The translations under genes were made by a program, and so were the position numbers. This document shows, piece by piece, positions 3,189 through 37,056 of a stretch of 40,873 nt of DNA. Source of the stretch: a virus (Duplodnaviria > Heunggongvirae > Uroviricota > Caudoviricetes); IMG/VR virus record IMGVR_UViG_2609460344_000022; one strand, 5' to 3'. How positions within the stretch are numbered: the first letter of the stretch is position 1; each line of letters begins with the position of its first letter. Under the pieces are notes generated by a model. That model was not told where the DNA came from. It ran no database searches and was given only the letters and a program-made list of their open reading frames with translations.

Positions 3189-3193
3189 CCGTT

Positions 3194-5547: not shown

Positions 5548-5617
5548 TGTGTTTAAACCTCTGACTGGATAAAAATAAGCGCCCTTTTTGGTAGCCTGTG
5601 CTGCCGGATTTTTTATT

Positions 5618-6010
5618 TCAGTGAAATGCTTTCTTGTTTGCGGTTTTGGTGCTGGCCTGAGTCTGTTCGTGCTGGCATTCAGGGCAGTCACAGGTGCATT
5701 CACCATTCTCTCTGATAAGCTGAAGAGCCATTGCCAGTTCCAGTATTGCCTGTGGTTTAATTGTACTGTCGACAATTTCAGATGCTGCATGAATATATGG
5801 GCTGGAAGTTTCGCAATACAAACCGAAGGAAACAAAACGACTGTCCTTATATTCGTTAATTGCGATTTCTGTTAGCTCTGAAAATGAATAGACATAATCT
5901 ATCTTGTGTTTTTTGCATATTTCATTTATGCGTGCTGCGATTTCTTTAAGCTCATTTATTGCGTCAGGGCAGGATTCTGAGAACACTTCGTTCTGTGCGA
6001 GTTCTTTCAT
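5618..6010 (-). CDS. Hypothetical Cys-rich protein
   Basis: 130-aa ORF in the early-left operon; C-terminal CTCDCPECQHE cysteine cluster; no recognized family. Confidence 0.45.
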   Translation of the reverse strand: MKELAQNEVFSESCPDAINELKEIAARINEICKKHKIDYVYSFSELTEIAINEYKDSRFVSFGLYCETSSPYIHAASEIVDSTIKPQAILELAMALQLIRENGECTCDCPECQHEQTQASTKTANKKAFH

Positions 6011-6084
6011 TTTACGTTTCCAGTGTTGATAACTAATGTGAATTGTTGTTTCAGTGTGGATTTAGAGAGCGTATTTATTGCTCA

Positions 6085-6324
6085 TCACCATGATTCGGCC
6101 TTTACAGGCAAACCATCGCGTCCCAGGAAAACTTTAATCATGCAGTCGGTAATGCATGTTTTTGTCGTGAAGTTACGAATATAGAGCTTTCTCTTTTCAA
6201 TATTGTTTGCTGAAGCGATATATGTGCGGCCTTCATGAAGAACATAATCGCCAGGTGTCACGCACTGACGTGGTATTTCATCAGTCCCGAAGTGATGAGC
6301 AATCATAATTATCTCCATTTTCAC
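6085..6324 (-). CDS. Hypothetical small protein (likely starts at ATG 6306 with GGAG SD)
   Basis: 79-aa track ORF; internal ATG preceded by GGAGATAATT gives a 73-aa product; no recognized family. Confidence 0.4.
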
Positions 6325-6482
6325 AAATGAACTTTGTTGATGCGGTGCCTGGTGCCTCCAGGTGACGTTAACCAGTTAACAATTAACGCCGGGTCAGGGG
6401 ATGATGACTTGCCGTGACATCCTGTCGGTTTAACTGTTCCGCGTGCGCTTAGCCGCATTCACCGCATCACAAAATTCACTTT

Positions 6483-6530
6483 AAAAAAGGGCGGACATCA
6501 GCCAGCAATAAACTGATGCCGCCAATGACT
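6483..6530 (-). terminator. Candidate intrinsic terminator inside early-left operon (tL-like)
   Basis: On minus strand: GGCGGCATCAG-loop-CTGATGTCCGCC stem followed by CTTTTTT. Confidence 0.45.
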
Positions 6531-6940
6531 ACACACAGCAATGTTGTTATTCACAACCGGAAGCGCACGGTCGAAGAAAATTTAACGATGCCGTACAGAT
6601 ATACGAGCTTTGCCGTGCGCTTTCGTGTTATGCCCTGGCTTTTCAGGGGAATATCTGTTCAGTAAACTGAGATTGCCGGATTCACACCCGTGTCCGGCGC
6701 ACGAACTCCACCTGACCCGTGGAGAACTCCTTAACTACAACCCCGTAAGGAGGGTGAATTTATGACATAAGAAGAAAAGGCAATGTTTCTGATGCGACTG
6801 GCTGTTGATACCTACAACACACAATTCAGGGAAGAAAAAATACCTCAAAAGGCAGTTCCTGCCGCGGTAGATAGGGGCGGTGCTATTGCCGTATTTTACG
6901 ACGCATTTGAATCCTTTTTTGATGAAAAAACTCGCAGCTG

Positions 6941-7300
6941 TTAGCGACTTCGGAACATCGAGTAATAAATAACGTCCATTACGGTTCTTAAACAACAATC
7001 AGTGGGCTTGATGTTGTGCTTTTCAAGCTCACTTGCCATCACTTCCATTATTCTTGCACTTACACGAATTATTTGGTGGCTGTAAGCGACGCAACTATCG
7101 CTGATATTGCTGTTTATTTCTATTGCTTCATTTTCACCATTAGCACTAACTTCAGATGTGCTGTTTTCATTTTCCTGTATCAGTGCTGCTTCCGCCATCC
7201 TGATGCGTCCCAGCGTTGAGGAATTTGGGCTAAGTTGATAAACCTGTCGGGCATCTTCCAGAAGCAGGGCGATAATGTGCTTCAGTTCTGTTTCGTTCAT
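6941..7300 (-). CDS. Hypothetical protein
   Basis: 119-aa ORF downstream of the zinc-ribbon protein in the N operon; no recognized motif. Confidence 0.45.
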   Translation of the reverse strand: MNETELKHIIALLLEDARQVYQLSPNSSTLGRIRMAEAALIQENENSTSEVSANGENEAIEINSNISDSCVAYSHQIIRVSARIMEVMASELEKHNIKPTDCCLRTVMDVIYYSMFRSR

Positions 7301-7331
7301 GGTTAATTCCGTGAGTTGCGATTTATTAATA

Positions 7332-8045
7332 TCAGGAGGTCAGTTCTTTAAGTTTCTGAACCGCTTTATTCATTTCATCCATGCAGTCGATGAACTCGTC
7401 CAGTTTAAGCTGCATTTTTCCGGCGGCCTGAAGAATTTCAAGTTTTAAGGGCGCGAGTTTTTTGTTGAATACATCATCTTCCTGACGTTTTTTCTCCGCA
7501 ATTTCGGCGGCTTTCAGCAATTCTTCTGCCTGTTTTCTGAGTGTTTCTGGTGAAGGTGAAACTACTTTGAGGTTATTCATTTCAGATTCCTGTTGTTGCA
7601 GAATTAATTTATTACATTCTCTGCGCAAGCGTTTCATTGCAGATTCGCACTTCTTACAATAAATGGCTCTCCCGTCACGTTTGCTGGCATCTGAATAAAA
7701 ATCATCGACTGATTTTGTCTGCCCGCATCTGGTGCATAATTTTGACTGAAGGTCCTTAATGATGGTCACGTTTCCTTCCCGTTTGGGATATCCATATTTT
7801 TTGTGGCGGAAAAAGGTTACTCCGTTACCAGAACCTTCTTTTCTGACCTTAAATACAATGATGCTTTCCCGTTTATCGATAAAATCGATGAGCTGGTTTC
7901 TCTCCTTGCCTGACAGTTCGGCAAATGTCTTAACTTTTTTAGTAACTTCCGTAAGTCGAACGCCATCAGGCATTTTTTCAACGAAGTTTTTAATCTCTGC
8001 AAGTGGACGCCATAATTTTTGCGGCAAAACTGAAGGCGTTGTCAT
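7332..8045 (-). CDS. Hypothetical zinc-ribbon / coiled-coil protein
   Basis: 237-aa ORF immediately downstream of N-like gene (3-nt gap); CTRCGQ...CKKCES zinc-ribbon motif followed by Lys/Glu-rich coiled-coil C-terminus. Confidence 0.55.
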   Translation of the reverse strand: MTTPSVLPQKLWRPLAEIKNFVEKMPDGVRLTEVTKKVKTFAELSGKERNQLIDFIDKRESIIVFKVRKEGSGNGVTFFRHKKYGYPKREGNVTIIKDLQSKLCTRCGQTKSVDDFYSDASKRDGRAIYCKKCESAMKRLRRECNKLILQQQESEMNNLKVVSPSPETLRKQAEELLKAAEIAEKKRQEDDVFNKKLAPLKLEILQAAGKMQLKLDEFIDCMDEMNKAVQKLKELTS

Positions 8046-9097: not shown

Positions 9098-10144
9098 TTA
9101 GTTATCCTTTAATAACCTATACAGTTTTGTAGGGGTACATCCTGAGGATATTGTTAAGTTCGTAGCACGCCTTTTCCGCCCATCATCGTATAAACGAAAA
9201 CCAGTAGTAGACGAATTTTCTGCGTCAAAAACTATAGACAGTATAGCGTCCCCAGACTTTTTTTGCCATTCGCATGTGCCGTTAGTTGGTTTCGTCATCT
9301 GTAGACGCCAGTCAAGAACGCCATCACTTATAGCTGAGAGATCGTTTAGTACATCTAGTACTGATTGATATCTTTCATTTGGATCTACATGAATGCATTT
9401 GTTTACTATTGTTATCAATTTTTTATGTATATGGGGAGGATATTCTTTTAATGGATAGCAGCCATTAATTATCGACTCTCTGAGTTGTTCAATCGTGCTA
9501 AATGCAGATCTTTCTCTTTCAAAATTATCATGTCCAACACACATTCTATATATGGTTAATCCTGCCTGATATATGTCATATGTGAAATTATAATCATTTG
9601 TTGATAAAGAAAAATATTCCGGTGGCACATGAAAATGATATCCAAACTCAGGCGCAGCTCTCGATTCCTCATTGACTAACTGAGATAATCCAAAGTCAGA
9701 TAGCATGGCCTCATTTCTGTTTGATATCATGATGTTATTAGGTTTTATATCAAAATGCATAAGACCTTTTGAGTGTATATGATAAAGTCCACTTAAAAAT
9801 TGAATAGAATACCGTATTATCTCCCTGCTTGTAAGATTATTTTTTTTCATTAATTGGTTTAGCGAACCATTATGATAAAATGGCATGGCTATATAGATAT
9901 TGCTCTCACATTGAGCAGCATACTGAACTTGCACAATATTTGGATGTGCATGTTTATAGAGAAGCCTTGCTTCATTAAAGTAGTCGTCGTGGTTAGTGTT
10001 TTCTTTTTTTTCTATTTCTTTAATCACCAAGTCATGAGCTAGGTGTCTGTCATGAGCCAGATATACTTTTGAAAAACAACCCTGTTCTTCTAGATCACGA
10101 ATCCATTCGAATTCTACATCAGCTCTTTTGTATGGAGTTAGCAT
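9098..10144 (-). CDS. Eukaryotic-like Ser/Thr protein kinase (Stk-like)
   Basis: 348 aa; catalytic loop HFDIKPNN, DFG motif (SDFGLS), beta3 Lys (VIKEI); strongly AT-rich; located between cI and pL. Confidence 0.8.
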   Translation of the reverse strand: MLTPYKRADVEFEWIRDLEEQGCFSKVYLAHDRHLAHDLVIKEIEKKENTNHDDYFNEARLLYKHAHPNIVQVQYAAQCESNIYIAMPFYHNGSLNQLMKKNNLTSREIIRYSIQFLSGLYHIHSKGLMHFDIKPNNIMISNRNEAMLSDFGLSQLVNEESRAAPEFGYHFHVPPEYFSLSTNDYNFTYDIYQAGLTIYRMCVGHDNFERERSAFSTIEQLRESIINGCYPLKEYPPHIHKKLITIVNKCIHVDPNERYQSVLDVLNDLSAISDGVLDWRLQMTKPTNGTCEWQKKSGDAILSIVFDAENSSTTGFRLYDDGRKRRATNLTISSGCTPTKLYRLLKDN

Positions 10145-18797: not shown

Positions 18798-18908
18798 TTG
18801 ACAACGTCGCGTGTTCGGGGCTATATTCCTCACGCGCCAGCAAAACCTGGCGTCGGGATTAGCACCCCGGATATCGAAACGGTGCATAACCGCGCTGGCG
18901 GTTTTTTT
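18798..18908 (+). ncRNA. Promoter + ~75-nt structured RNA + intrinsic terminator (copy 1)
   Basis: TTGACA-N18-TATATT (18798-18827); hairpins CGCCAG-CAAAAC-CTGGCG and AACCGC-GCTG-GCGGTT followed by TTTTTTT (18888-18908). Confidence 0.45.
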
Positions 18909-19072
18909 ATGCGCTAAGCACAGTCACATTCGCGATTTATGGCGGGCTGTGTGGGGGAGCCGAAAGGCTCGCCGGATGTTTCGACCGGTAGTGCTAACCC
19001 CGCACAGTTCGCCACCACGATGATTAGCACCTGACGGTGGCGAGGTAAAAATTATCGAAACGCGAGGTCATT

Positions 19073-19738
19073 ATGGCTGTTCAAATTTCTGTCGAAAACC
19101 TTTCCCCTGTTACCTATAACCAGATCCCCGTAATTACTACTGAACTGTTGGCTCACCTTTACGGAACAAAAATCAAAAACATTTCTGATAACTTTCTGAA
19201 CAACACGACGCGATTCATGCCCGGAAAGCATTACTTTAAAATTGAAAAAAACGAATTACGCGAGTTTAAGAACAGACCCGAAACAATCGGGTTAGTTGGT
19301 AAAAATGCCCGCTCCCTCATCCTCTGGACAGAACGCGGCGCAGCCCGTCACGCAAAAATGCTCGAAACCGATCGGGCGTGGGAGGTATTCGAAAAACTGG
19401 AAGACTGCTATTTCAGCCAGGGAAAAACAGCACCAACCGAACAGCAGCCGCAGATTCAGCCACAATTCACAGCCGAAGAAATCATCCTCCTTTGCTACAT
19501 GCAGCTCTGGATGGAAAAAGCCCAGGACATCAGCAAACACCTGTATCCCATTATGAAAGAGCTGAACTCCTCATACACGAACAAGCTGTATGACATTGCG
19601 TTTGAGACCATCTACATGGTGACGAAGAACAGAGACGCGCTACTGAGGGAGGTAACACGTCTCGACATGTCAAGTTCCGTTATCCAGCGGGCCATGCCAA
19701 TGCTGAAAAGCCTGCGGGCAAGACAATTTGAATTCTGA
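19073..19738 (+). CDS. ORF6N-domain antirepressor-like protein (paralog 1)
   Basis: 221 aa; N-terminus '[20 protein letters not shown]...[21 protein letters not shown]' shared with paralog at 20657 and typical of the ORF6N antirepressor N-terminal domain. Confidence 0.6.
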   Translation: MAVQISVENLSPVTYNQIPVITTELLAHLYGTKIKNISDNFLNNTTRFMPGKHYFKIEKNELREFKNRPETIGLVGKNARSLILWTERGAARHAKMLETDRAWEVFEKLEDCYFSQGKTAPTEQQPQIQPQFTAEEIILLCYMQLWMEKAQDISKHLYPIMKELNSSYTNKLYDIAFETIYMVTKNRDALLREVTRLDMSSSVIQRAMPMLKSLRARQFEF

Positions 19739-20382: not shown

Positions 20383-20497
20383 TTGACGTGATGATTTATT
20401 CGGGGCTATATTCCTCACGCGCCAGCAAAATCTGGCGTCGGGATTGGCGTCCTGGATAGAGACCGCGACAGATACACGCCGCGAGCGTGTTTTTTAT
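20383..20497 (+). ncRNA. Promoter + ~75-nt structured RNA + intrinsic terminator (copy 2)
   Basis: TTGACG-N18-TATATT (20383-20412); hairpin CGCCAG-CAAAAT-CTGGCG; terminator ACACGC-CGCGA-GCGTGT + TTTTTTATT (20474-20499). Confidence 0.45.
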
Positions 20498-20656
20498 TGT
20501 CGTATGCACGCGCACATCTGAATTATGGTGGGCTGTGTGGGGGCGGAGAGATCCGCGCCGGTCGGTTTCCCGGTTACGCCAACCCTGCACAGTTCACCAC
20601 CAGACGATTGGCGTCGTCGGTGGTGAGTTATTAAGAAACCACTCGAGGGCGTCATT

Positions 20657-21340
20657 ATGACAACTCAAATCTCTGTTGAAACACTCTCCACGATTACTTA
20701 CAAGCAGATCCCCGTTATCACTACCGAACTTTTGGCGCACCTTTACGGCACAGAAGCTATTCGTATTCGCCAGAATCACCACGAAAACAAAGGTCGTTTC
20801 ATTGAGGAAAAACACTTCTTCAAACTTGAAGGTGAAACTTTACGTGAGTTCAAGCACAGAGTAGCTTTTAACTACTCTGTGAAAATTGCCCGTAACGTTC
20901 GCTCCCTCATCCTCTGGACAGAACGAGGCGCAGCCCGTCACGCCAAAATGCTAGAAACCGATCAGGCGTGGGATGTGTTCGAAAAACTGGAAGACTGCTA
21001 TTTCAGCCAGTGCGAGAAAAATACTGGCAAACAAGAGAAGAAGCCCAACGGGCTTTCCGCAAAAGAAACAGACAGCCTTGTATGGCTGTGGGATTATGCC
21101 AACCGCTCACAGGCATTGTTCCGTGAGTTGTATCCCGCATTAAAACTGATTCAGTCTGGCTATTCCGGCATATGCCACGACTACGGCTATGAGTTCTCGT
21201 ATATCATCGGGAGGGCGAGGGGCGTTTTAATTAATCACACGCGGGATATAGATATTTATGAGCCTGACGGGCCGACGAACCTTCTGGCATGGGAAAGGCT
21301 TAAGAACAAAGAGTTGCCGCCTTCACTGCATCGCTACTGA
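20657..21340 (+). CDS. ORF6N-domain antirepressor-like protein (paralog 2)
   Basis: 227 aa; N-terminal ~120 aa highly similar to paralog 1, C-terminus divergent. Confidence 0.6.
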
Positions 21341-21408: not shown

Positions 21409-22137
21409 ATGACAATGAATGAGCTGATAAATAGCAGCATCATCAAAATGACCAGCATTGAAATCGCTGAGTTGGTGGGGAGTCGTCCAGATAACGTAAA
21501 AATATCAATAGAGCGCCTGGCTGAATCTGGAGTTATTCAACTTCCTGCATTGCAGGTTTTCGAAAAAATCAATAACTTAGGACTGCGCCGTAGTGTCGAG
21601 GCTTACGTCTTCGAAGGCGAACAAGGTAAGCGAGACAGCATTATTGTCGTCGCCCAATTGTCGCCGGAATTCACCGCTCGTCTTGTTGACCGTTGGCGAG
21701 AGCTTGAAGGGGCAACCGCGAAAATACCACAAACCTTTTCTGAGGCATTGCGCCTTGCGGCCGACCTTGAAGACCAGAAGGCTGAACTGGAGAAACAGCT
21801 TGCTCTCGCAGCACCTAAAGTTGAGTTTGCCGATCGAGTTGGCGAGGCCAGCGGAATTTTGATTGGAAACTTTGCAAAGGTTGTTGGTATTGGTCCAAAC
21901 AAACTGTTTGCGTGGATGCGCGATCACAAAATCCTTATTGCTTCAGGTTCCCGGCGCAATGTGCCAATGCAGGAATATATGGATCGCGGCTATTTCACAG
22001 TGAAAGAAACAGCGGTCAATACAAATCACGGAATACAGATCTCGTTCACCACAAAAATCACCGGGCGTGGTCAACAGTGGCTGACCAGAAAGCCGCTCGA
22101 TAACGGAATGCTGAAAGTAACAGGGGAGGCTGCTTAA
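21409..22137 (+). CDS. Rha-family regulator / antirepressor (KilA-C/ANT C-terminal domain)
   Basis: 242 aa; N-terminal 'MTSIEIAELVGSRPDNV' Rha-like HTH; C-terminal '...EFADRVG...KVVGIGPNKLFAWMRDHKIL' antirepressor-type domain. Confidence 0.65.
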   Translation: MTMNELINSSIIKMTSIEIAELVGSRPDNVKISIERLAESGVIQLPALQVFEKINNLGLRRSVEAYVFEGEQGKRDSIIVVAQLSPEFTARLVDRWRELEGATAKIPQTFSEALRLAADLEDQKAELEKQLALAAPKVEFADRVGEASGILIGNFAKVVGIGPNKLFAWMRDHKILIASGSRRNVPMQEYMDRGYFTVKETAVNTNHGIQISFTTKITGRGQQWLTRKPLDNGMLKVTGEAA

Positions 22138-22786: not shown

Positions 22787-22980
22787 TGAATGCTAAAATT
22801 CAAACGATACCTGAATTACTGATCTGCACCAGGGGAAATCAGACAGAAGTCGCCAGAATACTGAACTGCAATCGTGCTACAGTCAGAAAATACATTGATG
22901 ATAAAGATGCGAAAAAGCACGCCGTCGTCAATGGCGTCCTTATGGTTCATCGCGGATGGGGTAAAGATACTGATGCGTGA
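22783..22980 (+). CDS. ninH: NinH-like protein
   Basis: 65 aa; '[42 protein letters not shown]' resembles recalled lambda NinH. Confidence 0.7.
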
Positions 22981-23407
22981 TATCCGGCAGGTTCTTGAGC
23001 GCTGGGGGGCATGGGCGGTAAATAACTATGAGGATGTTACATGGTCGCCCATTGCTGCCGGATTTAAGGGACTGATCCCCGAAAAAGTAAAATCACGTCC
23101 ACAGTGCTGTGACGATGATGCGATGGTGATATGCGGGTGCATAGCCCGCCTTTACCGGAACAATCGCGATCTGCATGACTTGCTGGTTGATTACTACGTG
23201 TTGGGGGAGACGTTCATGGCGCTGGCACGGAAACATGGGTGCTCTGACACCTGTATAGGTAAACGCCTTCACAAAGCGGAGGGGATTGTTGAAGGCATGC
23301 TGATGATGCTGGGAGTGAGGCTTGAGATGGATCGGTATGTTGAGCGTGAATTGCCGGGAGGGAGAAGCTCTGTATTTTATCAGCGAAAAAATAGTTTACG
23401 ATCGTAA
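22973..23407 (+). CDS. Q: Late-gene antiterminator Q (phage 21/82 type)
   Basis: 144 aa from ATG 22973; '[49 protein letters not shown]' matches recalled Q82 family. Confidence 0.8.
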
Positions 23408-23439
23408 AAATCTGCATATCATGATAAGAGTGGTTACAT

Positions 23440-23472
23440 TGCCACGCAGCCGAACCCGCCGATGCGCGGGTT
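23440..23472 (+). terminator. Intrinsic terminator downstream of Q
   Basis: CCCGC-CGATG-GCGGG hairpin followed by TTTTTTT. Confidence 0.55.
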
Positions 23473-23651
23473 TTTTTGTACCCAGAATCCTGTGAGCTAT
23501 ACGGAAAGTACACAGAAAGGAAGGTACGACCGCAATTAATAACAAAATCTTAAAAATCTCATATGGCACTATTAGTTTTCTAAATATTGTATATTTTAAG
23601 TATTGCAGGATAACCCTGTAACGAAGTTTGCGTAACAGCATTTTGCTCTAC

Positions 23652-23690
23652 GAGTTTGCCAGCCTCCCCTGGTGGCTGGCTTTTTTTGTA
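23652..23690 (+). terminator. Candidate tR' terminator of the late-promoter leader RNA
   Basis: GCCAGCC-TCCCCTG-GTGGCTGGC hairpin + TTTTTTT about 200 nt downstream of the first terminator; AT-rich promoter-like sequence (tattgtatatttt) between them. Confidence 0.5.
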
Positions 23691-24172
23691 TCCGTTCAAC
23701 GGGAATGTTACATACCTCACAATTAAGTCAGTTGAATGTTGTCTGCCCGGATGAGAATTTGTTAGAAAAAACTGCATGGTGAATCCCCCTGAGCGGAGGG
23801 GCGACTGGTGACGGTATAATCTCTGATTATCAAAACGAGAATGACGCGGGTTTAGTGGCACCGGGCTGAACTCACCGGGAGGCACCCGGCACCATGCAAT
23901 GGCACATAGCGCCACTCTCCAGCCCCTCTCCGGAGGGGCTTTCTTATGGACAAAAAAGCCCGCGCTGGGAGACGCGGGCGGCAAGGAATGAACAATGAAA
24001 CGTGAAGTAATATTTCAGCTGGCGAATAATACCCCATAGTAATCACTCTGCGCAACTGCGCGACCTTTTTCGAATTGCGGGCTGTAGTCTCCCTTCTGCC
24101 ATTGTCCTGTAACTTCCGGACTTCAGCCCGCTCCTTATTTTACTCACAATATTATCCCGGCCGGGAGGATTC

Positions 24173-26083
24173 ATGGCATTTAAACACTATGATGTTGTCA
24201 GGGCGGCGTCGCCGTCAGACCTTGCGAAACGAATAACTCAAAAACTGAAGGAAGGGTGGCAGCCTTATGGTAGTGCGCTGATTTCGACAGCTGGTTATGG
24301 TGCGGAGTTCATCCAGCCAGTTGTGAGTGAGGGGAGCATCTCATCACCAGAGGAGCCAGGCAACCGTCCGACGACCTCAGCGCCTTCTGTTGCGCCAGAA
24401 TATTACTATGTGATCGCGCTTGCTGGTCAGTCCAATGGTATGTCATACGGTGAGGGACTGCCATTACCGGATACATTCGACAGCCCTGATCCACGTATTA
24501 AACAGTTAGCGCGTCGCAGTACGGTGACACCGGGCGGTGCAGCATGCAAATATAACGACATCATTCCGGCGGACCATTGTCTGCATGATGTGCAGGACAT
24601 GAGCCGTCTTAACCATCCGAAAGCGGACCTGTCAAAGGGGCAGTACGGAACCGTGGGGCAGGGGCTGCATATCGCCAAAAAACTGCTGCCGTTTATACCG
24701 GCGAATGCGGGCATTCTGCTGGTTCCGTGCTGTCGTGGTGGTTCAGCGTTCACCACCGGAGCTGATGGCACATACAGTGACGCGAGTGGCGCCTCGGAGA
24801 ATTCAACCCGCTGGGGTGTGGACAAGCCGCTGTATAAGGACCTTATCGGTCGAACAAAAGCGGCACTGGAGAAGAACCCGAAAAATGTGCTGTTTGCCGT
24901 GGTGTGGATGCAGGGGGAATTTGATTTTGGCGGTACGCCGGCAAATCATGCCGCACAGTTTGGTGCGCTGGTTGATAAATTCCGTGCAGACCTGGCGGAT
25001 ATGGCAGGCCAGTGCGTCGGTGGCTCTGCTGGCGGTGTTCCCTGGATATGCGGGGACACGACGTATTTCTGGAAGCAGAAGAACGAATCCACGTACCAGA
25101 CGGTGTACGGCAGCTATAAAAATAAAACGGAAAAGAATATCCATTTCGTACCGTTCATGACCGATGAGAACGGGGTGAATGTGCCGACGAACAAACCGGA
25201 AGAAGACCCGGACATTCCGGGTATCGGTTATTACGGTTCGAAATGGCGTGACAGCTCAGCCACCTGGACGTCACAGGACAGGGCGAGCCATTTCAGTTCA
25301 TGGGCTCGCCGTGGGATTATTTCCGACCGTCTGGCAACGGCGATTCTGAGCTGCGCGGGTAAGTCTTCTGCGTTTGTTAATGGTACTGCCGGGGTGGTTG
25401 TTCCAGACAGACCGGTTACCACCTCAGAGTCTGTAATTTTTTACGATGCCAAAAAAGCTACAGACAATCAGCTGAAACCCTATGGCTGGGACGGTGTGTA
25501 TGGCAGGCGCACACTGGTTGATGACAGCGGCAATAAAGCTCTGCGAATTGAGAAAAATAACAGCGCGAAATCCTGGTCAATGTACTGTGATATTGCTGCA
25601 GACAAGGCAAAACTTTTACTGGAAAAAGGCGGAGAAATTGCTGTCCGGTTTAAAATCCCCGAAAACGTCAATCTTGAGACAACCAGAAACAAGTATGCCT
25701 TTGGTTTGTACTGGCGAATAGCGGAATGGCCGGGTGAGGGTGGTGAAGGCCATCTGAGTTCTTTCTTTGTCCAGACAGATAAAGCCAGTATTAATGTTGC
25801 ATACCATCATACAGTTAATCAACAAAAAGAACTTGGCACGTTTGGCGCATTCGACCATGACTGGCATACGCTTGCATTTAAATTTAAGGGCAGTAACAGC
25901 ATTAATGTTACTCCGGTGCTTGATGGTGTGGATGGACAGGCGTTTGACCTGGTGAAATGGGCCAATACTGCTAATGGACTCAACAGGTTTGTCATTACGG
26001 ATATTACAGGTAGTGCAGAAACCTACCCTGTACTTATTGATACGGTGGAAGTTAAAGCAAACAAAGCTGGAGCAGCCGCATAA
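24173..26083 (+). CDS. NanS-p-like sialate O-acetylesterase (DUF1737 + SGNH/SASA domain)
   Basis: 636 aa; N-terminal DUF1737-like 'MAFKHYDVVRA...LKEGWQPYG'; esterase motif 'IALAGQSNGMSYGEG'; located between Q and the lysis genes. Confidence 0.7.
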   Translation: MAFKHYDVVRAASPSDLAKRITQKLKEGWQPYGSALISTAGYGAEFIQPVVSEGSISSPEEPGNRPTTSAPSVAPEYYYVIALAGQSNGMSYGEGLPLPDTFDSPDPRIKQLARRSTVTPGGAACKYNDIIPADHCLHDVQDMSRLNHPKADLSKGQYGTVGQGLHIAKKLLPFIPANAGILLVPCCRGGSAFTTGADGTYSDASGASENSTRWGVDKPLYKDLIGRTKAALEKNPKNVLFAVVWMQGEFDFGGTPANHAAQFGALVDKFRADLADMAGQCVGGSAGGVPWICGDTTYFWKQKNESTYQTVYGSYKNKTEKNIHFVPFMTDENGVNVPTNKPEEDPDIPGIGYYGSKWRDSSATWTSQDRASHFSSWARRGIISDRLATAILSCAGKSSAFVNGTAGVVVPDRPVTTSESVIFYDAKKATDNQLKPYGWDGVYGRRTLVDDSGNKALRIEKNNSAKSWSMYCDIAADKAKLLLEKGGEIAVRFKIPENVNLETTRNKYAFGLYWRIAEWPGEGGEGHLSSFFVQTDKASINVAYHHTVNQQKELGTFGAFDHDWHTLAFKFKGSNSINVTPVLDGVDGQAFDLVKWANTANGLNRFVITDITGSAETYPVLIDTVEVKANKAGAAA

Positions 26084-26221
26084 TTGCTAAAAAAAGCCGC
26101 CAGCGGCAGGAATGGAAGCTGGCGGAGGGAATCCCAATGGAGAATGTAAAGAAAAGATGCTTTCGTACATTGGTTTTTAAATGAAAACAATTCTCATTGT
26201 CAACCATAACGGTAAGAAATT

Positions 26222-26404
26222 ATGACATTTATTCATCAGGTGATGCTGTACTTCTGTACGGCGGTCTGTGTGCTGTATCTTCTTTCGGGTGGGTACAGGG
26301 CTGTGCGCGATTTCTGGTGCAGGCAGATTGATAAAAGGGCCGCTGAGAAAATCAGCGCCAGTCAGTCAGCCGGAAGCAAGCCCGAAGAACCCGTTACTCC
26401 TTAA
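26222..26404 (+). CDS. Small hydrophobic hypothetical protein
   Basis: 60-aa ORF with one predicted TM segment (VMLYFCTAVCVLYLL); weak support. Confidence 0.3.
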   Translation: MTFIHQVMLYFCTAVCVLYLLSGGYRAVRDFWCRQIDKRAAEKISASQSAGSKPEEPVTP

Positions 26405-26429
26405 CAACCCCTTTCAGCGAGAAAATCCC

Positions 26430-26675
26430 ATGTCAGAAATCACATCCCTGGTCACTGCTGAGGCAGTGAAGGAAGTCCTGCGCTCTGAAGAAGTCCGGAG
26501 CGCACTGAAACAGAAACTCCGCCAGAACCTTGAGTCGCGTCTTGATGCAGAAGTGGATGCCATTCTGGATGAGCTGCTGGGCGTACCAGCGGTTCCTGAG
26601 CCGGAAGGTATCGCGGGTGACGGGAGTGCTTCAGATGGCGGTGAACCTACACCTGACAGCGACATGATGATGTAA
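26430..26675 (+). CDS. Hypothetical acidic protein
   Basis: 81-aa product from internal ATG of the 26268 track ORF; weak SD. Confidence 0.3.
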
Positions 26676-26751
26676 GCATGCGCAAGGGACCATCGGTGTG
26701 TGCCGGTGGTCTTTATATTGTTGTGAGCTTCCGGATTGCGGGAGACGGGGT

Positions 26752-26967
26752 ATGTACCAGATGGAAAAAATCACAACAGGTGTGTCATACACCACGTCAG
26801 CGGTGGGAACGGGCTACTGGTTCCTGCAGTTGCTGGACAGGGTTTCCCCGTCTCAGTGGGCGGCAATAGGCGTGCTGGGGAGTCTGCTGTTTGGGCTGCT
26901 GACGTACCTGACTAACCTGTATTTCAAAATCAAAGAGGACCGGCGTAAGGCGGCGCGGGGAGAGTAA
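26752..26967 (+). CDS. S: Pinholin (S21-like holin)
   Basis: 71 aa; '...[57 protein letters not shown]' closely matches recalled phage 21 S; dual Met start (MYQM). Confidence 0.85.
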
Positions 26968-26971
26968 GCTG

Positions 26972-27505
26972 ATGAGCAGGAAATTCCGCTATGGTTTATC
27001 AGCGGTCGTTCTGGCGCTGATTGCTGCGGGCGCTTCTGCGCCTGAAATCCTCGACCAGTTTCTTGACGAAAAAGAAGGTAACCACACCACGGCATACCGT
27101 GATGGTGCGGGTATCTGGACTATCTGCCGCGGTGCCATCCTGGTGGATGGCAAACCTGTCGTTCCGGGCATGAAGTTGTCGAAGGAAAAATGCGACCGGG
27201 TTAACGCCATTGAGCGTGATAAGGCGCTGGCATGGGTGGAGAAAAACATCAGAGTGCCACTGACCGAACCGCAGAAAGCGGGCATCGCGTCATTCTGTCC
27301 GTACAACATCGGGCCTTCGAAATGCTTCACCTCAACGTTTTACCGGAAACTGAACGCAGGAGACCGGAAAGGTGCATGTGCTGAAATCCGCCGATGGATA
27401 TATGACGGCGGCAGGGACTGTCGGAACCGCTCAAATAACTGTTACGGGCAGGTATCGCGGCGTGACCAGGAGAGCGCGCTGGCGTGCTGGAGTATCGACA
27501 GATAA
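26972..27505 (+). CDS. R: SAR endolysin (T4-lysozyme-like muramidase)
   Basis: 177 aa; N-terminal signal-anchor-release segment (GLSAVVLALIAAGASA) followed by E...D...T catalytic triad region (LDEKEGNHTTAYRDGAGIWTICRG). Confidence 0.85.
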   Translation: MSRKFRYGLSAVVLALIAAGASAPEILDQFLDEKEGNHTTAYRDGAGIWTICRGAILVDGKPVVPGMKLSKEKCDRVNAIERDKALAWVEKNIRVPLTEPQKAGIASFCPYNIGPSKCFTSTFYRKLNAGDRKGACAEIRRWIYDGGRDCRNRSNNCYGQVSRRDQESALACWSIDR

Positions 27506-27597
27506 GCAGAATATTCTGCTGAAAAATGCCGTTGACCAACGCGAACGGATAACACGAAATCCTGCGAACTGGCAAAATTTAAGTGAGTAAAAGTAAA

Positions 27598-27635
27598 AAC
27601 CCCGTTTGTTGGCAGCAAGCGGGGTTTTGTGTTTC
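27598..27635 (+). terminator. Hairpin + T-run between endolysin and Rz
   Basis: CCCCGTTTG...CAAGCGGGG stem followed by TTTTGTGTTT. Confidence 0.35.
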
Positions 27636-27725
27636 TGACCTTGAATAAGGCAAGGGAGAAATTATGGGTAGGGAGGTTCTTTCCCTGTGAGGAAGTATAA
27701 AAGATTCTTTCTGAGGTTGTCCATT

Positions 27726-27839
27726 ATGAAAGGCATTGAGGTGGAGACGCCAGCAAGTCTGGATTTAACAAGAGCGGCAGCTTTTGCCATTCGTATTGTG
27801 GCAATTGCTGTTCTGGTCTGGGCAATCCGTTGGTGGTGA
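27726..27839 (+). CDS. Small membrane peptide (37 aa) upstream of Rz
   Basis: ATG with GAGG SD; hydrophobic C-terminus (AAAFAIRIVAIAVLVWAIRWW); stop 1 nt before Rz ATG. Confidence 0.3.
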   Translation: MKGIEVETPASLDLTRAAAFAIRIVAIAVLVWAIRWW

Positions 27840-27840
27840 T

Positions 27841-28299
27841 ATGAATCGTGTGCTGTATGGCGTGCTTATTGTCCTGCTGCTTGGTTGTGGATCGCTGTGG
27901 CTGGCAACAGACCATTACCGTGATAACGCCATCACCTACAAAGAGCAGCGAGATGATGCGAAGACAAAACTCAGCCAGGCGAACGCCACCATTGCTGACA
28001 TACAGCAGCGCCAGCGTGATGTTGCTGCACTCGATGCCAGATACACCAGGGAGCTTGCTGATGCTAACGCGACTATTGAAAGTCTCCGTGCTGATGTTTC
28101 TGCTGGGCGTAAGCGCCTGCAAGTCGCCGCCACCTGTGCAAAGTCAACGACCGGAGCCAGCGGCATGGGCGATGGAGAAAGCTCAGGACTTACAGCAGAT
28201 GCTGAACTCAATTATTACCGTCTCCGAAGTGGAATCGACAAGATAACCGCGCAGGTTAACTACCTGCAGGAGTACATCAGGATGCAATGCCTCGATTAA
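27841..28299 (+). CDS. Rz: Rz i-spanin
   Basis: 152 aa; N-terminal TM helix, coiled-coil periplasmic domain; follows endolysin. Confidence 0.8.
   Translation: MNRVLYGVLIVLLLGCGSLWLATDHYRDNAITYKEQRDDAKTKLSQANATIADIQQRQRDVAALDARYTRELADANATIESLRADVSAGRKRLQVAATCAKSTTGASGMGDGESSGLTADAELNYYRLRSGIDKITAQVNYLQEYIRMQCLD
28094..28246 (+). CDS. Rz1: Rz1 o-spanin lipoprotein (embedded in Rz, +1 frame)
   Basis: MFLLGVSAC lipobox followed by Pro-rich segment (KSPPPVQSQRPEP); fully nested in Rz. Confidence 0.7.
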   Translation: MFLLGVSACKSPPPVQSQRPEPAAWAMEKAQDLQQMLNSIITVSEVESTR

Positions 28300-28379: not shown

Positions 28380-28961
28380 TCACTGGGTAAGCTCGTTTGG
28401 TTTTAAATGTCCGTCGAGAATCAGATTGTGATTTTCCCGATGCAGAACCAGTGTGCCCATATAATCAGGTTTAAATCTCCATCCATTCATTTTTTTTGCA
28501 ATTCTGGACAGACAGTGATTATGTGTGAAAATCACAGTAACATGATCTGATTTTGATATTTTAAGGATATTATTTACTGCGTTATCATCACATGTCGATA
28601 TGTCCGGAATAGTTGCTGTCTTACCTCCCGAAAAAAAAGTGGCTGTCTGCATTGTTCGGAGTGTGTCTGTAGAATAGAGACTGTAGTATGGAAACATTCT
28701 TCTGAATTTATCTCCATATTGTTGAGCTTTGTTAGCTCCGTTTACTGTGATTCCCTCATGTGCTGAAAGACATATTCTTTGGGAGCGATCGCATCTTTCC
28801 CCATGCCGGATGAGAAAAATAATGGGATGTTTCTGGTTAATCTCAGTGACATCGTTCACATCAAGTCTGACTGGAGTTCTTACAATGTATATGATGGATA
28901 CAGAAACGATTATGACAAGTAAAAATATAAGAAGAGATTTTGTTAGCGTTTGATTTAACAT
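28380..28961 (-). CDS. Ais/PmrG-like histidine phosphatase (putative LPS core heptose-phosphate phosphatase)
   Basis: 193 aa from ATG 28961 (AAGGGA SD); RHG motif 'IIFLIRHGERCDRSQRICLSAHEGITVNG' and 'VIFTHNHCLSRIAK...FKPDY' align with recalled E. coli Ais; N-terminal TM/signal; AT-rich; opposite strand to late genes. Confidence 0.75.
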   Translation of the reverse strand: MLNQTLTKSLLIFLLVIIVSVSIIYIVRTPVRLDVNDVTEINQKHPIIFLIRHGERCDRSQRICLSAHEGITVNGANKAQQYGDKFRRMFPYYSLYSTDTLRTMQTATFFSGGKTATIPDISTCDDNAVNNILKISKSDHVTVIFTHNHCLSRIAKKMNGWRFKPDYMGTLVLHRENHNLILDGHLKPNELTQ

Positions 28962-29563
28962 ATAAATTCCCTTGTCTGTGTTGAAAATGGGCATTATTAT
29001 GCGTAAATCTTATGTAATCCTTAAGGATTGTCTGACGTGGTGATATGACGCGAAATACAGTGGGTACACAGAATGCTGTGAACAACGACGAAATGGGCAT
29101 TGGTAGCGGTACTGGTGCTTTTTTTATTGGTTGGTTGCTCAAGTCTTGATAAAGCGCGTTAGCTTTTTGGTATTGCCTCTTAGGTCTGTAAAATTGCCGA
29201 CGGTGTCCGGCAGTGCATGCAGGGCTGATCGTCTATGAGAACAGAATATATTGCTAAAAATGAAGTGTGCGTCAATGCTTATAAAGCATGCAATTCTGTA
29301 TTTCTAACTATTCAATAAAATAAATTCTTTCTGTCGCAGTGAATATACAAATGTTGATCAGCGCTCGATGTGGCGACGGGTTTCTATATCAGGAGACTTT
29401 GGCATTTATCCGCGAGGCAGCCTATCTGGTGCTGTAGTGGAATGAAGCGGATATAACCTAAATAAGGTTAAACATTAATCAGACATGGCTCTGCTGTGTG
29501 AAATCTGAAAATTTACAGCAGTCATTGTGCATCAGTTTTTAACAGAGAACGTCAGAAGGTGAC

Positions 29564-35397: not shown

Positions 35398-36612
35398 ATG
35401 ACCACAGTAACAACAGCCCAGGCGAATAAGCTGTATCAGGTGGCGCTTTTCACGGCTGCCAACCGAAACCGCTCGATGGTGAATATTCTCACTGAACAGC
35501 AGGATGCACCAAAAGCAGTTTCGCCTGACAAGAAAAGCACGAAGCAGACCAGTGCAGGTGCACCGGTTGTGCGAATCACGGACCTCAACAAACAGGCCGG
35601 TGATGAAGTGACGTTCAGCATCATGCACAAACTCTCTAAACGTCCGACGATGGGGGATGAGCGCGTTGAAGGCCGTGGTGAAGACCTCAGCCATGCTGAT
35701 TTTTCCCTGAAAATTAATCAGGGCCGTCACCTGGTGGATGCGGGCGGACGTATGAGCCAGCAGCGTACGAAGTTCAACCTGGCATCCTCTGCCAGAACGC
35801 TGCTGGGTACGTACTTTAACGACCTGCAAGACCAGTGTGCGATAGTGCATCTTGCCGGTGCCCGCGGTGATTTTGTTGCTGATGACACCATTCTGCCAAC
35901 GGCAGATCACCCTGAATTCAAAAAAATCATGATCAACGACGTACTGCCGCCGACGCATGATCGTCATTTTTTCGGTGGGGATGCGACGAGTTTTGAGAGT
36001 ATTGACCAGTCTGACCTGTTCACCCTTGCGCTGGTCGATAATCTCTCGTTGTTTATTGACGAGATGGCTCATCCGTTACAACCGGTACGCCTGTCCGGTG
36101 ATGAATTGTATGGCGAAGATCCGTATTACGTCCTCTACGTCACGCCGCGTCAGTGGAATGACTGGTACACCTCCACGTCCGGCAAGGACTGGAACCAGAT
36201 GATGACGCGTGCCGTAAACCGCTCAAAAGGTTTTAACCATCCGCTGTTCAAAGGCGAATGTGCGATGTGGCGCAATATTCTGGTCCGTAAGTATGCGGGG
36301 ATGCCGATCCGTTTCTATCAGGGGTCAAAGGTTATGGTGTCGAACAATGACCTTACGGCAACGATGGCAGAAAAGGCTGCTGCAACCAACATCGACCGTG
36401 CCATGCTGCTGGGGGCTCAGGCGCTGGCGAATGCGTACGGTCAGAAGGGCGGCGGTCACTTCAACATGGTTGAGAAGAAAACGGATATGGATAACCGTAC
36501 TGAGATAGCAATCAGCTGGATCAACGGTCTGAAAAAAATCCGTTTCCCCGAGAAGAGCGGCAAGATGCAGGATCACGGCGTGATTGCCATTGATACCGCA
36601 GTGAAGCTGTGA
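35398..36612 (+). CDS. Major capsid protein (putative)
   Basis: 404 aa, strong SD (GGAGTA), followed by hairpin + T-run; position after scaffold. Confidence 0.65.
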   Translation: MTTVTTAQANKLYQVALFTAANRNRSMVNILTEQQDAPKAVSPDKKSTKQTSAGAPVVRITDLNKQAGDEVTFSIMHKLSKRPTMGDERVEGRGEDLSHADFSLKINQGRHLVDAGGRMSQQRTKFNLASSARTLLGTYFNDLQDQCAIVHLAGARGDFVADDTILPTADHPEFKKIMINDVLPPTHDRHFFGGDATSFESIDQSDLFTLALVDNLSLFIDEMAHPLQPVRLSGDELYGEDPYYVLYVTPRQWNDWYTSTSGKDWNQMMTRAVNRSKGFNHPLFKGECAMWRNILVRKYAGMPIRFYQGSKVMVSNNDLTATMAEKAAATNIDRAMLLGAQALANAYGQKGGGHFNMVEKKTDMDNRTEIAISWINGLKKIRFPEKSGKMQDHGVIAIDTAVKL

Positions 36613-36666: not shown

Positions 36667-37056
36667 ATGGCAAAGACTATCCTTGCTCCATCACTGAGTG
36701 AGCGGATTTATTCAGGTACGCACGGTAATGAGTCGGTGGCAGAAGGTGTGTTTACAGTGAACGCTGCGGAAGCGGACAGTGTTATTCATCTTCTTTCACT
36801 GCCAGTTGGTATCCGTATCAACTCACTGCAACTGGTTTCAACGGGCGGTCTGGGTACTGCAACCGTCAGCATTAAGTCCGGTGAGCATGTTCTCATCGAT
36901 AACAGCGAAGCTGTTTCTGCAAAATTTGCCAGATATGTGCCCGTGGAGCCGTACACCACACTGCGTGACGGGGAGCTGGTTACTGTCACCATTAAGACTG
37001 CCGCTGCAACCGGCACCCTGAATGTTCTGCTGCGTTATACCGTGGTGGGTTACTGA
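36667..37056 (+). CDS. Hypothetical virion protein
   Basis: 129-aa ORF in structural module. Confidence 0.45.
   Translation: MAKTILAPSLSERIYSGTHGNESVAEGVFTVNAAEADSVIHLLSLPVGIRINSLQLVSTGGLGTATVSIKSGEHVLIDNSEAVSAKFARYVPVEPYTTLRDGELVTVTIKTAAATGTLNVLLRYTVVGY

Follow-up and report, generated by a model that had tools for sequence, protein, structure and literature searches.

A probable late-operon nanS-p sialate O-acetylesterase gene with a predicted capsid-docking domain in an stx-negative prophage

Introduction

Biochemical and genetic studies of the prophage enzyme NanS-p date back to 2014, and the chromosomal enzyme NanS is encoded in the nanCMS operon. Structures have been solved for the NanS-p C-terminal domain (6YP6) and for the homologous chromosomal NanS (3PT5). 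Heterogeneous phage-borne nanS-p alleles were reportedly described by Saile et al. in 2018, the source cited for five active alleles of Escherichia coli C227-11. According to a review, each of the five NanS-p alleles in C227-11 phi-cu gives an active esterase and growth on Neu5,9Ac2 (PMC8065619). The gene order Q (stx) - nanS-p - S-R-Rz is shared by 59 Stx2a phages (PMC10462455).

A preprint of 2026, which is not peer-reviewed, describes the DUF1737 domain of the NanS-p protein of phage phi24B, gp84, as a hexameric capsid decoration seen by cryo-EM (10.64898/2026.04.10.717836). In that account, which covers phi24B only, residues 2-57 of gp84 are the structural part, the map shows the N-terminal domain only, and the hexamer sits on the central hexons, where a Tyr42 'tooth' is held by capsid pore helices. 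The same preprint reports full-length gp84 in fresh virions, from which the enzyme is proposed to be cleaved off later, and puts forward a second SSP motif, as a proposal and not more, as the autoprocessing site.

Here we compare with these systems a gene from a 40,873-nt stretch of viral DNA (the whole stretch that was analysed, hereafter the window). We consider it likely that this gene, which lies in an stx-negative prophage, is the nanS-p known from 933W/phi24B-type lambdoid phages, where it encodes a sialate O-acetylesterase in the late operon; this judgement applies to the whole explanation of nanS-p identity, late control and capsid-display mechanism taken together.

Results

An intact three-domain esterase gene of the NanS-p family

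The reading frame of nanS-p is unbroken from its ATG to the end of its stop codon, with coordinates that are exact in the ORF listing (Table 1), and a Shine-Dalgarno sequence, GGGAGGA, is located at 24163-24169. The 636-aa product matches PHROG 143 over its full length (1084 bits), and its domain matches are much too strong to be due to chance; an NCBIfam search gave no match for the esterase, Q or the holin. NCBI labels for the protein are inconsistent, since the copy in strain cM8a is called 'DUF6645 domain-containing protein' and that in C227-11 'SASA family carbohydrate esterase'.

Table 1. Coordinates of nanS-p, its domains and the surrounding features in the window
Feature	Coordinates	Strand	Evidence or remark
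Q antiterminator, 144 aa, Q933 type	22973..23407	+	PF06530 E=3.8e-50; 99% identical to phi24B Q
Late promoter PR', TTTACG-16 nt-TATCAT	23395..23422	+	Promoter scan; overlaps Q 3' end
StxS-type late leader RNA, ~258 nt from PR' start to tR'	23429..23687	+	Terminator scan; near-identity to phi24B
Empty stx insertion site	23696..23703	.	phiSTEC1589 has a 1760-bp stx1cAB cassette exactly there
STnc100 sRNA gene	23746..23951	+	Rfam RF02076, 165.1 bits (gathering 47), E=1.9e-37, model 1-206
nanS-p	24173..26083	+	636 aa; three-domain phage sialate O-acetylesterase
DUF1737, aa 3-53, predicted capsid-docking (decoration) domain	24179..24331	+	PF08410 E=4.9e-18
NanS-type SGNH (SASA) catalytic domain, aa 72-393	24386..25351	+	3PT5 alignment; 318/322 identical to phi24B gp84
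Recombination junction, end of catalytic domain	25345..25360	.	phi24B-like to phiSTEC1589-like sequence
DUF6645 lectin-like jelly-roll, aa 426-630, rare variant	25448..26062	+	6YP6 E=7e-42; PF20350 E=1.6e-28
Lysis cassette	26752..28299	+	Holin, lysozyme, Rz-type spanin; RefSeq starts from locus L004
P21-type holin	26752-26967	+	PF04971 E=1.5e-32
Lysozyme	26972-27505	+	PF00959 E=5.2e-25
Rz-type spanin	about 27841-28299	+	PF03245 E=1.1e-36
Major capsid protein, 404 aa, phi24B/933W type, predicted DUF1737 docking partner	35398..36612	+	382/404 vs vb_24B_29
129-aa head protein	36667..37056	+	97% identical to phi24B vb_24B_31

A preliminary description of this DNA had proposed a prophage-encoded, NanS-p-like esterase on the basis of a DUF1737-like N-terminus and a GQSNG motif, and our analysis bears this out. 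Domain architecture, catalytic residues and the position between Q and the lysis cassette all agree with the family assignment, both the DUF1737 domain and the GQSNG motif (aa 85-89, 24425-24439) are present, and a prophage setting is indicated by the Q antiterminator upstream and by DUF1378, DUF826, P21-type holin, lysozyme and Rz genes downstream. We found neither the single-domain architecture of a NanS of the nan regulon nor flanking nan genes, but three domains and phage neighbours.

Within the catalytic domain, the SASA family (PF03629) matches aa 152-276 (E=2.1e-10), and E. coli NanS/YjhS (PDB 3PT5) aligns end to end with aa 72-393 (E=3.5e-118). The GQSNG motif provides Gln86 as oxyanion residue and Ser87 as nucleophile, and His373 (codon 25289-25291) lies inside the sequence RASH (aa 370-373). 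The protein thus carries both of the active-site blocks given for NanS-type enzymes, GQSN and variants of R(A/S)SH (PMC10462455). In the 3PT5 alignment, Gln86, Ser87 and His373 correspond to Gln18, Ser19 and His301 of NanS, the roles of which have been described (PMC9063846). We infer that the tests on five C227-11 alleles included the 636-aa allele; activity on Neu5,9Ac2 and on acetylated mucin glycans is predicted by transfer from C227-11, which encodes an identical protein.

Our search for a signal peptide revealed no hydrophobic N-terminal segment, the highest mean of any Kyte-Doolittle 15-mer in the first 75 aa being 0.85. NanS-p would therefore remain in the cytoplasm, and the lysis cassette is the only evident exit route for the signal-less esterase, so that the enzyme would meet its substrate only once the producing cell lyses.

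A phi24B-like late control region upstream of nanS-p

The start of Q in Table 1 corresponds to that in RefSeq, which gives a 144-aa protein in the near-identical loci L002 and L004; the longest open reading frame begins at 22874. PR' matches the annotated phi24B pR' (HM208303 21225-21252) base for base, and the leader start at 23429 was placed from its -10 box. Two terminator-like structures follow, a leader-internal hairpin with a T8 run (23452-23481) and a second hairpin (23656-23680) with a T-run at 23681-23687. In the Sakai Stx1 and Stx2a phages, dRNA-seq and Term-seq gave a distance of 258 nt from PR' to tR' (PMC7547250), and we therefore assign tR' to the second hairpin. The first one, which would yield a leader of ~50 nt, conflicts with that distance and was rejected as tR'.

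From the end of the tR' T-run, near 23687, to the ATG of nanS-p there are 485 nt, which contain the STnc100 sRNA gene with a terminator-like hairpin at 23921-23940. The preliminary description had placed the esterase directly downstream of the late leader under late-promoter control. It is indeed the first protein-coding gene after PR' and tR', but it does not adjoin the leader, because the sRNA gene lies in between. Late-promoter control itself is supported by the 99% identity of Q, the phi24B-like PR'-tR' region, the promoter scan and the induction of homologues: transcripts of nanS-p homologues rise by 1-2.4 log with mitomycin C in qPCR and are detectable at a basal level without inducer (PMC10462455). 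These data support the prediction that nanS-p expression would rise on prophage induction. A consensus scan, from which weak promoters could escape, detected no sigma-70-like promoter on the + strand between 23700 and 24173, nor did a consensus scan detect a strong + strand terminator right after the nanS-p stop codon. STnc100 presumably has its own promoter missed by the scan, and read-through from it could give Q-independent expression of nanS-p.

Between Q and the esterase, 933W and phi24B carry tRNA genes and stx, and neither was found in the window, indicating that the prophage is not an Stx phage. A blastn comparison matched 22800-23695 to positions 2001-2896 and 23704-26586 to positions 4657-7538 of the phiSTEC1589 locus (L001), in which stx1A/B are annotated at 3116-4343. 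nanS-p holds the slot that is taken by stx in Stx phages.

An N-terminal domain identical to a reported capsid-docking domain

Residues 1-120 of the product are 100% identical to phi24B gp84, including 71/71 positions for residues 1-71 and 57/57 for residues 1-57. Tyr42 and Gly54 are present, followed by SISSP at aa 55-59 (24335-24349). An SSP motif occurs only at aa 57, compared with aa 57 and 414 in phi24B; the second SSP, which in phi24B belongs to the linker that joins the catalytic to the C-terminal domain, is missing, and thus processing may differ from that of gp84.

The same prophage encodes the cognate phi24B-type capsid protein, with the HK97 fold of a T=9 head. It is 95% identical to that of phi24B, and the 22/404 differences are clustered around aa 199-213 and 313-325. 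At the corresponding position of a related C227-11 prophage (L002), the RefSeq annotation is a major capsid protein of the N4-gp56 family, a match by position. Size and position suggest that the 129-aa head protein is probably the one that cements the capsid. Another protein of the head region, 335 aa long, is 90% identical to that of phi24B. Based on the N-domain identity to gp84 and the prophage's own 95% identical capsid protein, NanS-p is most likely displayed on virions and freed at lysis. The preliminary description had taken the DUF1737 domain as a family marker only, a reading that gives way to the capsid-docking role reported for it (10.64898/2026.04.10.717836).

As to whether DUF1737 variants track head type, the two clean cases agree with such co-variation. 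933W-type phages have an N-domain that is at least 98% identical in the cases examined, and that of phage 2851, a phage with another type of head that includes a protease-capsid fusion, is only 59% identical. In LC727861 the N-domain is 98% identical, yet no phi24B-type head genes occur within 19 kb downstream. This sequence is a degraded mosaic in which nanS-p is frameshifted and which contains an IS element and tail genes of the lambda type; it is therefore not a clean counter-example.

A rare C-terminal module in a mosaic gene

The Pfam match to DUF6645 spans aa 483-594, and the C-terminal module shares 90/212 residues (~42%) with the crystallised phi24B domain. Three of the four aromatic residues proposed to form its sugar site are retained (Y508, Y513 and F532); the fourth, F611, is replaced by N601. 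This C-terminal variant is rare, being found in 44/5426 complete E. coli genomes and in 1/342 matching phage records. Its carriers include the O104:H4 lineage, O10:H32, O112, ML35 and cM8a. We rejected an enrichment in serogroup O104, given the other carriers and the over-sampling of outbreak genomes.

Nucleotides 361-1110 of the gene are 98.4% identical to phi24B vs 84.7% to the Stx1c phage phiSTEC1589, whereas nucleotides 1177-1911 are 46.9% identical to phi24B and 98.9% to phiSTEC1589. nanS-p is a clear three-piece mosaic, indicating that docking, catalytic and lectin modules swap independently between prophages.

Discussion

We propose the following course of events, for which identical or near-identical homologues supply all of the data on induction, transcription, esterase activity and association with virions. 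In the lysogen, as the identity with mapped Stx phages suggests, PR' would fire and transcripts would end at tR', leaving the StxS-type leader only. Upon induction, Q-modified RNA polymerase would pass tR' and the STnc100 terminator and transcribe the nanS-p, lysis and head genes, in line with the homologue data. The signal-less NanS-p would stay cytoplasmic, and DUF1737 hexamers could dock on every face of the T=9 capsid, in its central hexon, giving up to 120 copies per virion, as the identity of residues 1-120 and of the capsid protein to phi24B suggests. Holin-endolysin lysis would then free virion-bound and free enzyme. The SGNH domain (Ser87/His373, Gln86) is expected to de-O-acetylate sialic acids, whether free or bound to mucin, at the 9-O- and other side-chain positions, and in this way NanS-p would remove acetyl groups from the sialic acids of gut mucus. 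The jelly-roll C-domain presumably keeps the enzyme, or the virion, attached to glycans. De-O-acetylated sialic acid could feed into the sialidases and the Nan pathway of surviving sibling lysogens, so that the benefit would arise at the population level; the phage may benefit as well, through retention in, or passage through, mucus.

Other readings of the gene have to be weighed against this one. NanS-p could be a soluble lysogenic-conversion enzyme that unlocks acetylated sialic acids, with no structural role and an irrelevant DUF1737. In line with this, growth of EDL933 and of O104:H4 on Neu5,9Ac2 needs nanS-p alleles (PMC8065619, PMC10462455), and chromosomal NanS shares 65-70% identity with the catalytic domain. 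However, an identical N-domain has been resolved on phi24B capsids, and the prophage itself codes for the capsid protein that goes with it; the consensus scan found no autonomous promoter of the kind that a moron should have, and an enzyme lacking an export signal reaches its substrate only via lysis of its producer. We therefore regard a purely soluble enzyme as unlikely. The preliminary description had linked induction to carbohydrate scavenging from host mucins; scavenging for the lysogen is probably part of the function but not the whole of it, as DUF1737 is reported to be capsid-docking.

A second possibility is that the virion-borne esterase and lectin act on bacteria, de-O-acetylating an O-antigen or capsule of the O104/K9 type and thereby exposing a receptor or releasing virions from cell debris, much as receptor-destroying enzymes such as viral haemagglutinin-esterases do. 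The sialic acid of the O104 O-antigen is O-acetylated, and the rare C-domain variant is found in the O104:H4 lineage. A bacterial target has been raised as a possibility in a review (PMC8065619), internal sialic acid is a component of the O104 O-antigen (PMC9631793), and capsid display places the enzyme on the virion (10.64898/2026.04.10.717836). Against this, the variant also occurs in O10:H32, O112, ML35 and cM8a and hence does not track O104, the enzyme sits on capsid faces and receptor-modifying enzymes are normally on the tail, and the literature consulted reports no activity on bacterial polysaccharide. Taken together, a bacterial target seems quite improbable. Even more doubtful is the idea that the rare C-module retargets the capsid-displayed esterase to another glycan, maybe an O104/K9-type O-acetylated sialylated polysaccharide, with the whole enzyme staying on the virion; if true, the phage head would bear a working 'haemagglutinin-esterase' with a specificity unlike that of 933W-type NanS-p. 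That nanS-p is a decaying remnant of a cryptic prophage with no present function is highly improbable: many E. coli copies are broken (LC727861 is frameshifted, that of phage 2851 is split, others carry IS insertions; PMC10462455), but here the reading frame is intact with every catalytic residue present, the protein is identical across unrelated strains, and every one of the Q, lysis, terminase, portal and head genes around it is likewise intact.

In our preferred reading, a late-operon NanS-p that is displayed on capsids, the gene is an ordinary, intact copy of an already well-studied prophage enzyme. It adds little as a discovery, as RefSeq already lists exactly this protein for the O104:H4 outbreak strain. 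What changes is that DUF1737 is now to be read as a capsid-docking domain, which would shift NanS-p from a lysogen fitness gene towards a virion-displayed enzyme.

Comparison with known systems

The closest relative is WP_000874468.1 (AAF13_RS09470) of C227-11, the E. coli O104:H4 strain of the 2011 outbreak, which is identical at 636/636 residues. The local order there is the same (Q, esterase, DUF1378, DUF826, holin, lysozyme, Rz), and the C227-11 prophage is likewise stx-negative with 933W-type head genes. In contrast to the window, which has 933W/phi24B-like immunity (stk kinase, cI) and antirepressor modules, it carries other genes at these places. Strain cM8a matches the window as a whole, and its nanS-p product differs by G43S.

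Among the NanS-p proteins of Stx2a phages, the capsid-decorating esterase phi24B gp84 (vb_24B_21; 933W L0105, z1466 or 933Wp42) is ~99% identical over residues 1-393 (389/393), including Tyr42, Gly54, SISSP, Ser87 and His373, and phi24B is also nearly the same in Q, PR', tR' and the capsid protein. Compared with phi24B and 933W, the window is without stx and the upstream tRNA genes, and its esterase has a C-module of only ~42% identity, with N601 in place of F611 and no second SSP. The reverse holds for the NanS-p of phiSTEC1589-Stx1c (XYH49091.1), in which the C-module is 97.9% identical at the protein and 98.9% at the DNA level and the flanks are the same, but the catalytic allele is a different one (84.7% DNA identity, nt 361-1110) and the esterase is separated from tR' by an stx1c cassette.

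Chromosomal NanS (YjhS) shares the SGNH type II fold, the Ser-His dyad and the Gln oxyanion residue, but is a single-domain enzyme, to which NanS-p adds DUF1737 and DUF6645, a place in a phage late operon and the lack of a signal peptide. T4 Hoc and viral haemagglutinin-esterases serve as a working analogy only, for a glycan-binding or -modifying module on the exterior of a virus, and the preprint itself draws a T4/mucin parallel in its discussion (10.64898/2026.04.10.717836). Neither has a sequence relationship to NanS-p; Hoc is monomeric and no enzyme, and haemagglutinin-esterases are envelope entry spikes.

A NanS-p gene at the head of the late operon

The esterase gene nanS-p is a single 636-codon ORF from ATG to stop codon, covering exactly the stretch that the preliminary description had assigned to a NanS-p-like sialate O-acetylesterase. 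Three Pfam domains all exceed their curated cut-offs: DUF1737 (aa 3-53, E=4.9e-18), the sialic-acid-specific acetylesterase domain SASA (aa 152-276, E=2.1e-10), and DUF6645 (aa 483-594, E=1.6e-28). PHROG 143 matches the protein end to end (1084 bits), the alignment of aa 72-393 with E. coli NanS/YjhS (3PT5, E=3.5e-118) contains no large gaps, and aa 426-630 match the crystallised NanS-p C-terminal domain (6YP6, E=7e-42). These matches support the assignment, and both hallmarks on which it was based, the DUF1737 N-terminus and the GQSNG motif (aa 85-89), are present.

In the 3PT5 alignment, Gln86, Ser87, and His373 correspond to Gln18, Ser19, and His301 of NanS, i.e., the oxyanion residue and the catalytic Ser-His pair of an SGNH type II fold without the usual Asp, as summarised from Rangarajan et al. 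2011 in PMC9063846. The GQSN and RASH block variants, both present here, are among those tabulated for NanS-p proteins (PMC10462455). The N-terminus shows no hydrophobic stretch (Kyte-Doolittle 15-residue mean of at most 0.85 in the first 75 aa), and thus NanS-p has no Sec signal.

Features of the prophage in window coordinates
Feature	Position	Strand	Detail
Immunity region	9098-11773	-	ORFs of 348, 153, 113, 234 aa
sok antitoxin RNA	16783-16957	+	Rfam RF01794, 110 bits
C4 antisense RNA modules	18821-19019; 20406-20604	+	Rfam c4-a1b1, isrK, C4
Antirepressor ORFs	19073-19738; 20657-21340		
KilAC/Roi-type antirepressor	21409-22137		
Q	22973-23407		PF06530, E=3.8e-50
pR'	23395-23422	+	TTTACG, 16 nt, TATCAT
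StxS-type leader	23429-23687	+	about 258 nt
Leader hairpins	23452-23473; 23656-23675		
ORF overlapping STnc100	23580-23984	-	134 aa
Empty stx site	23696-23703		
STnc100	23746-23951	+	Rfam, 165 bits (gathering score 47)
STnc100 terminator-like hairpin	23921-23940		
Terminator	23958-23979	-	GCCCGCG...CGCGGGC, then T6
Promoter-like site	24151-24179	-	overlaps nanS-p start codon
Ribosome-binding site	24163-24169		GGGAGGA
nanS-p	24173-26083	+	
GQSNG motif	24425-24439		
Allele switch	25345-25360		
Esterase-holin interval	26084-26751	+	
DUF1378 ORF	26222-26404	+	
DUF826 ORF	26430-26675	+	
Holin, lysozyme, Rz	26752-28299		
Histidine-phosphatase ORF	28380-28994	-	204 aa

A complete late leader next to an empty stx site

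The antiterminator Q is 99% identical to that of the Stx2a phage phi24B, and the stretch between the end of Q and 23692 matches both phi24B and phage phiSTEC1589-Stx1c at almost every base. The late promoter pR', placed via the phi24B annotation, is the only plus-strand promoter-like site detected by a consensus scan of 23200-26800, and the two annotated phi24B terminators map onto the two leader hairpins. In the Sakai Stx1 and Stx2a phages, dRNA-seq and Term-seq gave a PR'-tR' distance of 258 nt (Sy et al., PMC7547250). Since 258 nt from the predicted start near 23429 (~7 nt past the -10 box) reach a T-run at 23681-23687, the second hairpin is identified as tR', and the StxS-type leader is complete. 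Directly past this leader the stx site is empty, where phiSTEC1589-Stx1c carries a 1760-bp stx1cAB insert; the window harbors no tRNA genes. Processing of the StxS leader yields an Hfq-binding sRNA which activates rpoS (PMC7547250), and this stx-negative prophage may still provide such a regulator.

Placement of nanS-p directly downstream of the leader, as previously described, holds insofar as no other protein-coding gene of the late operon precedes it, but it starts 485 nt from tR' and the sRNA gene STnc100, which ends 221 nt before the ATG, lies in between. The proposed Q-dependent expression upon induction is supported by the near-identity of Q and pR'/tR' to phi24B and by nanS-p homologues, which showed basal expression followed by a 1-2.4 log rise with mitomycin C in qPCR (PMC10462455). 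Because the consensus scan, which could overlook a promoter, revealed none of its own, nanS-p seems not to be an autonomous moron.

In phiSTEC1589, a second STnc100 copy (L001:4384-4634, in the phage locus), 75% identical to that of the window, is located just 3' of stx1B, so that a repeat of what follows the empty site of the window comes after the stx cassette. This flanking repeat hints that stx cassettes might be gained or lost through recombination between STnc100-like copies. On the minus strand, a strong terminator just 3' of STnc100 and the promoter-like site at the nanS-p start together suggest that a short antisense RNA crosses the 5' UTR of nanS-p. The minus-strand ORF overlapping STnc100 is probably spurious.

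Predicted display of NanS-p on the capsid

The phi24B NanS-p, gp84 (vb_24B_21 in HM208303), is among the most abundant virion proteins and occurs in fresh virions as the full-length protein of about 70 kDa, which is processed to about 35 kDa upon storage (bioRxiv preprint, April 2026, 10.64898/2026.04.10.717836). Its residues 2-57 (DUF1737) form a hexamer that plugs the hexon at the centre of each T=9 capsid face, with Tyr42 as anchoring "tooth" and density that stops at Gly54 beside a SISSP motif (10.64898/2026.04.10.717836). The window protein is identical to gp84 over residues 1-71 (71/71), including Y42, G54, and SISSP, and shares 318 of 322 residues of the catalytic domain. Besides 933W-type terminase and portal ORFs, the prophage encodes a 404-aa major capsid protein, a 129-aa head protein, and a 335-aa head-region protein that are 95%, 97%, and 90% identical to their phi24B counterparts. 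Because the N-domain equals that of gp84 and matching head proteins are encoded, NanS-p would be loaded onto capsids in the cytoplasm. Judged from the same identity, it would leave the cell only at holin-endolysin lysis, both virion-borne and free. This structural role of DUF1737, as well as the intervening sRNA gene, was missed in the preliminary description.

The docking idea was checked by a small comparison of N-domain variants with head types. The N-domains of 933W-type short-tailed phages are at least 98% identical and paired with a phi24B-type capsid protein; phage 2851, whose head is of another kind and includes a protease-capsid fusion, has an N-domain that is only 59% identical. LC727861, which at first seems to break this pairing, is not decisive, as it resembles a degraded mosaic more than a viable phage. 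The database entry LC727861.1 presents it as a complete Stx2a phage. Within 25000-44000, however, a frameshift breaks nanS-p into parts of 268 and 369 aa, and the lysis region is succeeded by an IS3-family transposase and then by lambda-type tape-measure and GpJ genes; no head genes were found in the 19 kb examined.

A mosaic gene with a rare C-terminal module

Past aa 393, similarity of NanS-p to the phi24B protein falls to about 42% (90/212, crystallised part). DNA alignment with phi24B and phiSTEC1589-Stx1c shows a three-piece mosaic of gene nt 1-360 (99.7% and 99.2% identity, respectively), nt 361-1110 (98.4% and 84.7%), and nt 1177-1911 (46.9% and 98.9%), with the allele switch immediately past the conserved GIISDRLATAIL block. 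As Stx2a phages are already known to vary module by module in their D, SASA, and CTR parts (PMC10462455), this mosaic adds a further example to an established pattern. Of 342 matching phage records, a single one carries the C-domain variant at an identity of at least 95%. Among complete E. coli genomes the variant occurs in 44 of 5426, whereas 999 genomes have the catalytic domain at the megablast level (median 3 copies, maximum 7). Three of the four aromatics proposed to bind sugar in vb_24B_21 (Y510, Y515, Y540, F611; PMC10462455) are kept as Y508, Y513, and F532, and the fourth is Asn601. The second SSP motif, which the preprint tentatively ties to autoprocessing (10.64898/2026.04.10.717836), is absent. 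That the rare module gives a capsid-displayed esterase a different, possibly bacterial, glycan target seems to us very improbable.

Other features of the prophage

Each of two tandem P1/P7-style C4 modules precedes an antirepressor ORF, and a KilAC/Roi-type antirepressor follows. The sok RNA marks a hok/sok type I toxin-antitoxin locus in the early-right region; for the O104:H4 strain C227-11, RefSeq has hokD at the equivalent position. Between the Rz and terminase genes, the histidine-phosphatase ORF resides in a 42% G+C patch and looks like an inserted cargo gene; in C227-11 (L002), at the corresponding position only, RefSeq lists a lipopolysaccharide core heptose(II)-phosphate phosphatase. 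The esterase-holin interval contains DUF1378 and DUF826 ORFs, and in other prophages PasA/PasC sRNA genes were placed there (preprint 10.64898/2026.05.13.724894). By length and order, the immunity ORFs correspond to stk, res, orf13c, and cI of phi24B/933W, and the otherwise similar O104:H4 prophage carries different genes there. Thus, judged from ORF lengths and annotation only, the prophage would be mosaic, combining a late region of the O104:H4 type with an immunity region of the 933W type.

Relation to known strains and esterases

The 3.9 kb at 22800-26700 are 99.8% identical to the O104:H4 prophage (C227-11, 2011C-3493, and others) and 99.9% to strain cM8a, which matches window 1-25000 at about 100%. 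NanS-p is identical to WP_000874468.1 of C227-11 (636/636) and differs from the cM8a copy only by G43S. NCBI names these copies differently, as "DUF6645 domain-containing protein" in cM8a (L004:2874-4784) and "SASA family carbohydrate esterase" in C227-11 (L002:21374-23284), and both names leave NanS-p and the capsid-docking domain unmentioned.

According to the review PMC8065619, C227-11 phi-cu has five NanS-p alleles, all of which gave active esterases and supported growth on Neu5,9Ac2, and PMC10462455 states the same for alleles of O104 LB226692 and O157 EDL933. As the window allele is encoded in a non-Stx prophage of C227-11, we infer that it is one of these five. With an identical RefSeq protein from a strain whose alleles were assayed, nanS-p is an already known feature. 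Its three domains and location in a phage late operon exclude chromosomal NanS. All sequence-testable features of the phi24B-type DUF1737 decoration protein are present except the second SSP motif, the significance of which is only proposed, and those of the NanS-p family are found without exception.
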